Assembly: GCA_964523545.1 (NCBI GenBank)
Contig: CAZFZM010000004.1
Coordinates: forward strand, 395 to 64,394
Direction of reading: 5' to 3'
Source of the DNA: an uncultured Thermotogae bacterium
Lineage (GTDB): Bacteria; Bipolaricaulota; Bipolaricaulia; UBA7950; UBA9294
Length of the DNA stretch: 64,000 nt
Part shown: positions 40,115 to 40,627 of the stretch, piece by piece
Layout: each line of letters begins with the position of its first letter
Numbering within the stretch: position 1 is the stretch's first letter
Translations under genes and position numbers: made by a program
The notes under the pieces: generated by a model
Seen by the model: the letters and a program-made list of their open reading frames with translations, nothing else
Told to the model about the DNA's origin: nothing
Databases searched by the model: none

Positions 40115-40627
40115 GTGCCGAGGAGGAAGCTGCGGTATTGGTGGACCATCGGCCTTGTCGTGTGTGTTATTGGGCTCATCGGAGTGTTCAATGCAATGAG
40201 TTCGGGAGAAGGAGATTCCGAGGAGGCTACTCCGCTGTTCGCAGTGAGAACAGCGGGGGCTACCGATCTGCAGGCCGTGGGTGTTGTGGAGTCCTATGTT
40301 CAGGATGTGGCCTTGCTCGAAGATGGATACGAGTGCTCACTGCAGGGTACGTGCGAAGACATCGAAGTCCATGTGTTAGTTACCGAATTGCCTGGGTGCA
40401 TCACACTGCAGGACACGTGTGACTGCGACACCCAGATCGGACCGACGTGTATGGGATTTCCTACCTGCTCTTCGACATGCCTTCCCACCTGTGGTGTGAC
40501 ATGCATTGAAACGTGTGGGAGCACTTGTCTGACGTGCAGCACCTGTGACACATGCTGGAACACCTGCGAGGCAACCTGCGCAAGTTGCGACCCGCCTTGC
40601 CCGATGTCCACGGGGTTCGGTTGGTAG
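40115..40627 (+). CDS. secreted/membrane-anchored protein with C-terminal (xxTC)n cysteine-repeat region
   Basis: GTG 40115 lies 8 nt after GGAGG; the track start 40106 overlaps the SD. Signal/anchor PRRKLRYWWTIGLVVCVIGLIGVFNA. The C-terminus PTCMGFPTCSSTCLPTCGVTCIETCGSTCLTCSTCDTCWNTCEATCASCDPPCP uses mixed synonymous codons for T and C. Confidence 0.65.
   Translation: MPRRKLRYWWTIGLVVCVIGLIGVFNAMSSGEGDSEEATPLFAVRTAGATDLQAVGVVESYVQDVALLEDGYECSLQGTCEDIEVHVLVTELPGCITLQDTCDCDTQIGPTCMGFPTCSSTCLPTCGVTCIETCGSTCLTCSTCDTCWNTCEATCASCDPPCPMSTGFGW

Follow-up and report, generated by a model that had tools for sequence, protein, structure and literature searches.

The 64-kb window analysed here (64,000 nucleotides (nt), positions 395 to 64,394 of the forward strand of contig CAZFZM010000004.1, assembly GCA_964523545.1) comes from an uncultured bacterium labelled Thermotogae at NCBI and placed in the Bipolaricaulota by GTDB. 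At 40115-40627, on the forward strand, it carries a gene for a small protein of 170 amino acids (aa), followed by a stop codon, whose C-terminal part is dominated by Thr-Cys dipeptides. The gene, first picked out in a first-pass annotation made from the DNA letters alone, is confirmed. Its product, the TC protein, is encoded by the first gene of a conserved four-gene envelope cassette which also contains, on the same strand, genes for two paralogous polytopic membrane proteins, here called G1 and G2, and for a membrane-anchored peptidase of family S41.

At its longest the reading frame opens at an in-frame GTG at 40106, giving 173 aa; the start is likely to be the GTG at 40115, which lies 8 nt past a Shine-Dalgarno-like GGAGG (40102-40106, +) read directly from the sequence. 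A protein identical to the 170-aa product (P0001) is present in public collections. Consensus scans of 39850-40900 found no sigma-70 promoter and no intrinsic terminator. The protein begins with the basic stretch MPRRKLRY, followed by a hydrophobic segment of 19 residues (WWTIGLVVCVIGLIGVFNA; 40139-40195, +) predicted to serve as a signal peptide or signal anchor. The helix is kept across all aligned homologues, bearing out the Sec-type signal or anchor that the first-pass annotation had proposed. In an AlphaFold2 (AF2) model built on a 7-sequence alignment, the mean predicted local distance difference test score (pLDDT) is 42.8 and the sole confident part is the helix spanning residues 6-31 (pLDDT ~80). 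Cys17 (40163-40165), in the middle of this helix, is kept in most homologues of the window type. A lipoprotein was also considered and was rejected because there is no lipobox of the form [LVI][ASTVI][GAS]C: the sole N-terminal Cys lies mid-helix in the context LVVC, with Val at -1, and the corresponding context in homologues likewise provides none.

Beyond the hydrophobic segment lies a family motif, TPLFAVRTAGA (40229-40261, +), of the form [ST]-P-L-[FY]-x-x-R-T-x-x-A, in which P, L, F, R and A are invariant in the homologue alignment. There follow an acidic, variable middle region with five scattered Cys (40262-40444, +), poorly conserved among homologues, and then the Thr-Cys array itself (40445-40600, +), comprising 12 TC, one SC and one PC dipeptides with a period of 3-4 residues. 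The long non-repeat region reported ahead of the repeats is therefore present as described. The protein closes with the tail PMSTGFGW (40601-40624, +), the last residue being aromatic, and five of six close homologues likewise end in CDPPCPxSxGFGW, the sixth having lost this ending by a 1-nt deletion. In composition the protein is acidic, with 13% Cys; some 19 Cys lie outside the membrane, and its exported part contains 21 Asp and Glu residues against a single Lys or Arg.

The regularity of the array was assessed in several ways. The last 63 residues are exactly as first quoted, with Cys every 3-4 positions, and their 14 Cys are preceded by Thr in 12 cases and by Ser and Pro in one each. From C121 to C165 the gaps between consecutive Cys run 4,4,4,4,4,3,3,3,4,4,3,4. 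When the 63-residue segment was shuffled 200,000 times, not one shuffle reached 12 TC dipeptides (the maximum was 10) and not one reached 12 gaps of 3-4. Codon usage within the repeat is mixed (ACC, ACA, ACG and ACT for Thr; TGC and TGT for Cys) and Tandem Repeats Finder reports no DNA repeat; the pattern is therefore maintained at the protein level, and the earlier view that it does not reflect slippage of the DNA holds. Homologues at 37-46% identity keep the register, with T128, C129, C133, T136, T140, C141, T146, C147, T149, C150, T153, C154, T157, C158, S160, C161 and C165 all invariant, and their register ends STCDTCWNTCEATCASCDPPCPxSxGFGW.

Selection can be seen more directly by comparison with a related locus, L003, in which two TC genes lie in tandem. 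Over the 25 codons that the repeat shares with the L003 paralogue there are 12 synonymous and two non-synonymous differences. Similarity at the DNA level to the second of the tandem genes begins only at 40510, from where the two are 89% identical. Over their 5' two-thirds the TC genes reach only ~42-46% identity, compared with 91% protein identity for the downstream gene, G1. The TC genes are thus mosaic and evolve rapidly outside the repeat and tail. Close to the 3' end of the second tandem paralogue (P0006; L003:1453-1980), a 1-nt deletion has replaced the PPCPxSxGFGW tail, which is either a pseudogenising change or a sequencing error. Taken together, these results show the TC repeat to be real, beyond chance and under selection.

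Relatives of the TC protein are few. Six matches at E<=0.01 were obtained in a search of 5.8 billion proteins, and a profile search of 1.84 billion representatives retrieved 39 proteins; scans of genome and metagenome contigs with the TC alignment gave no confirmed relatives. The homologues P0001-P0008 and P0011 have the architecture of the window protein, and an arrangement of signal peptide, [ST]-P-L-[FY]-x-x-R, variable part and (xxTC)n extends beyond this close family. In P0009 the motif is followed by a GH25 lysozyme domain, a long TC array and a C-terminal transmembrane (TM) helix, while in P0012 and P0014 the TC array precedes a C-terminal β-rich domain. One relative is annotated as coming from a Methanotrichaceae archaeon. 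The number of Cys varies from 13 to 21 in close homologues, with 19 in the window protein, and 20 of 30 family members have an odd number. Of ~600 gaps between Cys in the wider family, 388 are of four residues. Thr occupies the position before Cys in 74-76% of cases in the window-type proteins and wider family, and in 64% in the bacterial proteins encoded beside G1-G2 that are described below. There is no family match for the TC protein in Pfam or NCBIfam (in the latter, not even at E<=10) and no relative in a sequence search of the PDB. PADLOC gave no match to a defence system.

Two instances can be given by locus. In L016:1205-3175 a TC array lies between a GH25 lysozyme domain and a C-terminal TM helix, and a C25 peptidase gene comes next; in L098:7897-9198 an array precedes a C-terminal region which, as judged by eye, resembles S-layer homology (SLH) domains. 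The contig bearing P0117 holds one more locus of the archaeal type.

The second gene of the cassette, 233 nt beyond the end of the TC gene, encodes G1 (40861-43440, +), a polytopic membrane protein of 859 aa with two GldG/GIFT domains (DUF4350 and ABC_transp_aux in Pfam). Its paralogue G2 (43437-46043, +; 868 aa) follows immediately, its start overlapping the G1 stop (ATGA), and between them the two proteins match the Pfam domains DUF4350, ABC_transp_aux and IFT52_GIFT. The fourth gene (46128-48806, +) encodes the membrane-anchored S41-family peptidase of 892 aa (Peptidase_S41, 3e-19). While the S41 domain links it to the Ctp/Prc proteases, and its NASAGSAAE fits the motif around the nucleophilic Ser, this protein differs from them in several respects. 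It contains a duplicated S41-like module, evident as an internal match; its matches to the C-terminal processing peptidase families of NCBIfam score far below the equivalog cut-offs; and it has AGTTG at the usual position of the GKG Lys. Its only matches in the PDB are to peptidase-like structures from Bacteroides, all uncharacterised.

Loci L006-L010 carry these four genes in an identical order, at identities to the window proteins of only 34% (TC), 33% (G1), 39% (G2) and 58% (S41), and there the cassette adjoins IS110 and rve transposase genes. L003, L004 and L005 each have an S41 gene whose end lies a short way upstream of their TC gene or genes, which in L003 are followed by G1. Two Logan contigs of 9-10 kb, L001 and L002, are identical to the window over 39005-49041 and 39764-49041, respectively. 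Within the window the cassette and its small flanking open reading frames (ORFs) form a compositional island (39005-48900) in which the GC content of third codon positions (GC3) is 0.63-0.67, compared with 0.8-0.9 in the housekeeping flanks.

The G1-G2 pair has a broad phyletic distribution, being present in at least 235 species-representative genomes, mostly of Thermoplasmatota along with many anaerobic bacteria. G2 has 197 homologues at E<=1e-5, of ~843 aa and 35-40% identity, those with named hosts being mostly from Thermoplasmatota, and a scan of one genome per GTDB species located 235 loci. The best 80 of these 235, from which the counts of neighbours of G1-G2 below are taken, are again mostly from Thermoplasmatota, the remainder coming from Desulfobacterota, Blastocatellia, Verrucomicrobia, Latescibacterota, Anaerolineae, Bacteroidota, Thermotogae, Syntrophomonadaceae, Ignavibacteriota and others. 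In about 70 of the 80, G1 lies immediately upstream of G2.

The AF2 model of G2 (pLDDT 81; predicted template modelling score, pTM, 0.81) contains a polytopic domain of helices, ~300 aa long, and a pair of GIFT/ThuA-like domains with two TM helices between them. In Foldseek the matches of the soluble domains are to IFT52, ThuA-like proteins, the middle domain of GH42 enzymes, site-1 protease and OST48. For the N-terminal membrane domain Foldseek gave no match, so that its assignment as a GT-C glycosyltransferase, an O-antigen ligase or an exosortase-like protein is unsupported, and the lack of any invariant Cys or His there is evidence against an active site of exosortase type. The loop between the central TM helices is rich in Arg (YRQSRPRAS), so that by the positive-inside rule both GIFT domains would lie outside the cytoplasm. 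G1 and G2 share the GIFT fold with GldG, the N-terminal domain of IFT52, OST48 and ThuA-like proteins. DUF4350 (arCOG01314) has been predicted from gene context to be part of an archaeal envelope or secretion complex (Makarova et al., PMC5898192), and in a paper on cobalt in Geobacter a DUF4350 gene is merely listed as down-regulated. G1 and G2 differ from the GldG/DUF4350 systems, however, in their additional N-terminal polytopic domain and in forming a fixed paralogous pair; moreover, they lack an accompanying ABC ATPase and permease or vWA and MoxR proteins, having instead a protein with the [ST]-P-L-[FY] motif as their partner.

This last association was assessed across the 80 loci. We counted ORFs with a signal-like N-terminus in which [ST]P[LAV][FY] occurs right after the hydrophobic core. 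Among signal-bearing ORFs the motif occurs in 62 of the 275 that lie no more than 3.5 kb from G1-G2, against 3 of the 208 farther off, and 41 of the 72 loci with at least 1.5 kb of flanking sequence have such a partner. The motif lies 7-23 residues past the hydrophobic core of the signal, TPLF in the window protein being 13 residues past. The motif segments of the window type and of Thermoplasmatota, taken without their signal peptides, align in hhalign with 95.6% probability (E 1e-8, 23 columns), part of this score being built in since the segments were chosen by their four-residue core. The window protein has both the SPLF-type motif after its signal or anchor helix and G1-G2 within a few kb. 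It belongs, therefore, as a protein that is exported or anchored, to a hitherto undescribed class with SPLF motifs, coupled genetically to G1-G2 and, in this genome, also to an S41 protease. The strongest clues to its affiliation are this motif and the conserved neighbours, namely the two GldG-like proteins and the S41 protease. In searches of open-access text, neither the motif nor the TC class nor the G1-G2 pair was found to have been described.

The partners differ greatly downstream of the motif. In Thermoplasmatota the gene after G2 encodes a 222-aa signal-peptide protein with SPLFAIRTQRS and no TC repeats, and other loci encode proteins of 110-140 aa with SPLFxIRTxxAI and a short Cys-containing tail. 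Bacterial partners have the motif in the form SPLFxxSLxxxxxxLE and are for the most part strikingly TC-rich. That of L064 (12724-14982) has 752 aa, 92 Cys and 87 TC dipeptides at a period of ~6, and ends in a sorting domain of the type IX secretion system (T9SS). Others are of 389 aa in L092 (52 Cys, 44 TC), 301 aa in L099 (34 Cys, 27 TC), 722 and 330 aa for the two in L087 (66 Cys, 43 TC and 46 Cys, 21 TC, respectively) and 349 aa in L071 (32 Cys, 22 TC), and the pattern recurs in L062, L074, L076, L088 and L098. Two partners from Desulfobacterota have Met/Cys repeats, in which Thr again precedes the sulfur-containing residue: in that of Desulfamplus (L063:12850-14334), which totals 50 Met, 26 Cys and 23 TM dipeptides, they read ETMNPMDxxC, and in that of a member of the Desulfobulbia (L061:12737-13087) PTMDPALPEC. 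Apart from the T9SS tail, the bacterial partners match no Pfam or NCBIfam family, and PDB sequence searches with G1 and two TC-rich partners returned nothing informative.

Two observations on these loci may be added. In a partner from Victivallales (L083:4000-5265) 48 Cys occur in inverted x-C-T-x-G units, Thr here coming after Cys. In Thermoplasmatota (L017:13380-14441, and also L020, L023, L028 and others) a conserved secreted protein of 353 aa is encoded after the SPLF protein; its HAGYF and ATCYA are suggestive of a clan-CD cysteine peptidase, an unverified resemblance for which Pfam and NCBIfam provide no match. By its place in the cassette, the S41 protease would seem to occupy the position of this archaeal protein.

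With its short motif, fixed in position within exported proteins that are otherwise diverse and genetically linked to a peptidase and dedicated membrane proteins, the system recalls the sortase/LPXTG, exosortase/PEP-CTERM and T9SS C-terminal domain (CTD)/PorU systems. The likeness is one of analogy only: there is no homology to sortase, exosortase or PorU, and the SPLF motif is N-proximal whereas the signals of those systems are C-terminal.

The first-pass annotation had drawn attention to the Thr-Cys pairs as the chemistry exploited by peptides that are made on ribosomes and modified after translation (RiPPs), through azolines, lanthionines or thioethers formed by radical S-adenosylmethionine (SAM) enzymes. 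On this explanation the TC protein would be a RiPP-like precursor whose array is modified by enzymes encoded elsewhere in the genome and then exported. The pairing is indeed chemically suggestive, a protease is encoded in the cassette, and the closest named families, sharing a tandem periodicity of Cys, with one at every fourth residue of long arrays, are the CXXX-repeat targets of radical-SAM enzymes (TIGR04114, tSAM_targ_Cxxx; TIGR04117, Syntroph_Cxxx; PF27846). A distant relative, P0012, is alone in reaching a cut-off among these (20.3 bits on TIGR04114, against a cut-off of 20); P0010 scores 1e-5 on TIGR04117, below its cut-off, and archaeal relatives match PF27846 faintly. The window protein itself, however, misses TIGR04114 and TIGR04117 even at E<=10, and it differs from those targets in its signal or anchor, its SPLF motif and its GldG-like and protease partners.

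Nor is there any sign of modifying enzymes in the window or in related loci. Pfam scans of ~57 window proteins picked up housekeeping and transport genes only and revealed no radical-SAM, SPASM, YcaO or lanthipeptide family, and thus none of the YcaO/cyclodehydratase or LanB/C/M/KC/L proteins of azol(in)e and lanthipeptide clusters, and there is no neighbour of the TIGR04115 maturase or TIGR04116 partner type in the window. Among window ORFs of at least 150 aa a CxxxCxxC motif occurs in none but the TC protein itself. Across 88 related loci no CxxxCxxC neighbour recurs, there being only three scattered ORFs, and the stand-alone archaeal TC genes have no such neighbours either. The TC protein further departs from azol(in)e and lanthipeptide precursors, and from peptide natural products in general, in its Sec-type N-terminus, in conserved partners that are all membrane or extracytoplasmic proteins, and in the dimensions of its family, whose members reach 750 aa and include fusions to GH25 enzymes, T9SS sorting domains and TM helices. 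We therefore think a RiPP origin improbable. The earlier interpretation as a whole is, then, partly supported: its RiPP chemistry finds no corroboration, and its alternative of metal-binding or disulfide proteins is the direction in which the evidence now points. A further resemblance in periodicity is to the C-X3-C-X3-C pattern of Pfam C_tripleX (PF02363) from Caenorhabditis, a function-unknown family of eukaryotes, and probably reflects convergence between low-complexity sequences; P0010 scores 18.9 bits against the cut-off of 22.9 and the window protein does not match.

How might such a protein work? Sec export would bring its body to that face of the membrane on which the GIFT domains of G1 and G2 and the catalytic domain of the S41 protease would also lie. 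The N-proximal motif, probably an N-capped amphipathic helix, could then be the docking or recognition element for the G1-G2 complex. The Thr-Cys array, rather than a RiPP core, would be a modular unit of exposed thiolates whose copy number varies, and its most likely task would be to coordinate metal ions of soft or borderline character or to become cross-linked through them. The S41 protease may mature the TC protein or turn it over, possibly through the conserved aromatic C-terminus. As a composite, this picture of an exported thiolate-rich repeat protein, docked to G1-G2 and processed by a protease, seems to us a credible explanation, although one to which we would give somewhat less than an even chance. 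Its observational foundations are much firmer: that the gene is real, that its repeat is under selection, that architecture and synteny are shared and that the motif is associated with G1-G2 are all established with high or very high confidence.

The natural comparison for such a thiolate unit is with metallothioneins, Csp copper storage proteins and periplasmic copper proteins with Mets motifs. Like these, the TC protein is rich in Cys, acidic and poor in hydrophobic residues, and two lineages have the Met/Cys analogues described above. It differs in showing no sequence or profile match to any of them, in its TCxx spacing in place of CxC or CxxC, in being exported or anchored, and in being encoded beside a protease and GldG-like proteins, not beside genes for metal efflux or regulators. 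A helical bundle resembling that of Csp was considered for the 3/4 spacing of Cys and is judged unlikely given the content of Pro, Gly and Thr.

Alternatively, the array could be a rigid rod braced by disulfides, of β-helix or cystine-ladder type, whose role would be that of a spacer or a fibre at the surface, free of metal or thiol chemistry. Its extracytoplasmic location would suit such a role, as would its placement as a linker in the GH25-TC-TM arrangement of P0009, in the motif-TC-T9SS CTD arrangement of L064 and next to the β-rich domains of P0012 and P0014. The period-6 PTCDGSETCD arrays of L064, moreover, would seem to resemble the Tenebrio antifreeze β-helix in Cys spacing. Yet the TC period of 3-4 differs from the 12-residue TCTxSxxCxxAx coils of the antifreeze consensus, there is no TxT face, the AF2 model contains no β structure, β-helix included, albeit at low confidence, and no sequence match exists in the PDB. 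Four considerations lead us to favour the binding of soft metals or metal sulfides, or cross-linking by metals, over a disulfide stalk. The counts of Cys vary and are odd in most members; the acidity of the exported part is extreme; in two lineages the TC units are replaced by repeats rich in Met, which forms no disulfides; and the hosts are mostly strict anaerobes or archaea of reducing sediments, where extracellular disulfides are not expected to persist. Anaerobic hosts are indicated by pyruvate:ferredoxin oxidoreductase (PFOR) in the window, by its Bipolaricaulota affinity and by the occurrence of related loci in Thermoplasmatota, Desulfobacterota, Syntrophomonadaceae and Methanotrichaceae. 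The stalk, to which the linker-like position of TC arrays in multidomain proteins lends real support, is in our view unlikely.

The same alternation of Cys and Met arrays, both residues being oxidisable, would also suit a sacrificial sink for oxidants or electrophiles in the envelope of an anaerobe, the S41 protease encoded alongside serving to clear the damaged protein. The anaerobic hosts fit this proposal too. Against it, the cassette includes no thiol-reductase, Msr or Dsb genes, and purifying selection on the exact register and on Thr at -1 exceeds what a simple sink would need; we consider it highly improbable.

Several observations nevertheless weigh against the thiolate-array and docking explanation that we prefer. 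Metal binding, though favoured, would rest on composition, habitat and two Met-rich analogues only, and AF2 provides no confident fold for the TC region. The partners of Thermoplasmatota carry the motif without being Cys-rich, so that motif and TC array may serve separate functions. A motif-bearing partner was found in only 41 of 72 loci, many bacterial loci having none at the stringency used, and stand-alone archaeal TC proteins lack G1-G2 within the short contigs examined. We know of no established peptide-binding role for GIFT/ThuA-like domains, and the match of the S41 protein to PDZ_4 is only 0.004, below the cut-off of that family.

More speculatively, the [ST]-P-L-[FY] element may serve as an N-proximal signal for sorting or docking, and G1-G2 may be an unrecognised envelope machine, nearly universal among sediment Thermoplasmatota and present here and there in anaerobic phyla of bacteria, that handles proteins with this signal, aided by a dedicated peptidase. 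Its bacterial cargo would be a new class of poly-(Thr-Cys) or poly-(Thr-Met) proteins at the cell surface, binding chalcophile metals or metal sulfides, and the window would record a transfer of the module between domains of life, into Bipolaricaulota. We offer this larger proposal only tentatively, since it seems to us a good deal more probable that some part of it is mistaken than that all of it is right. Regarding transfer, G2 of the window is 38-40% identical to its Thermoplasmatota homologues compared with 29-37% to most bacterial ones, and the window motif keeps the archaeal form SPLFA[VI]RT. Along with the low-GC3 island, this suggests that the cassette may have been acquired by the Bipolaricaulota lineage from archaea.

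Besides PFOR the remainder of the window encodes NusA, RNase Y, an oligopeptide ABC system, citrate lyase, aconitase-family subunits, polynucleotide phosphorylase (PNPase), S15, BamA and Skp, a gene content which, BamA and Skp included, indicates a diderm bacterial host. The PNPase (52604-55207, -), of 867 aa, has two S1 domains, and its nearest named relatives, at 67-73% identity, are from Candidatus Bipolaricaulota, which makes this the probable phylum of the host. An apparent fusion of a citrate-lyase acyl carrier protein (ACP/MdcD-like) with the β-subunit (HpcH/HpaI), 390 aa in length, is encoded upstream of CitF (33897-35069, +). An ORF of 987 aa (36126-39089, -) runs in antisense across the genes for citrate lyase and the aconitase family; almost certainly it is spurious, a frame left open by high GC.

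On comparative genomic grounds, then, the cassette is a well-supported candidate for a new envelope module, combining a new motif with a new class of Thr-Cys protein. The motif proteins have so far been covered neither by Pfam, NCBIfam and PADLOC nor by the searchable literature. For genome mining there is a note of caution in this, since a long Cys-X3 array that has been flagged as a radical-SAM or RiPP target may prove to be a surface module, exported by Sec and with quite other partners. If our explanation is true, a system of motif plus machinery in hundreds of uncultured archaeal and bacterial species would have been overlooked until now, providing an N-proximal counterpart to the C-terminal sorting systems and a role for a conserved gene pair of sediment Thermoplasmatota. 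It would also define an exported polythiolate family that may be relevant, in sulfidic habitats, to the acquisition of trace metals, to attachment to minerals or to redox protection.

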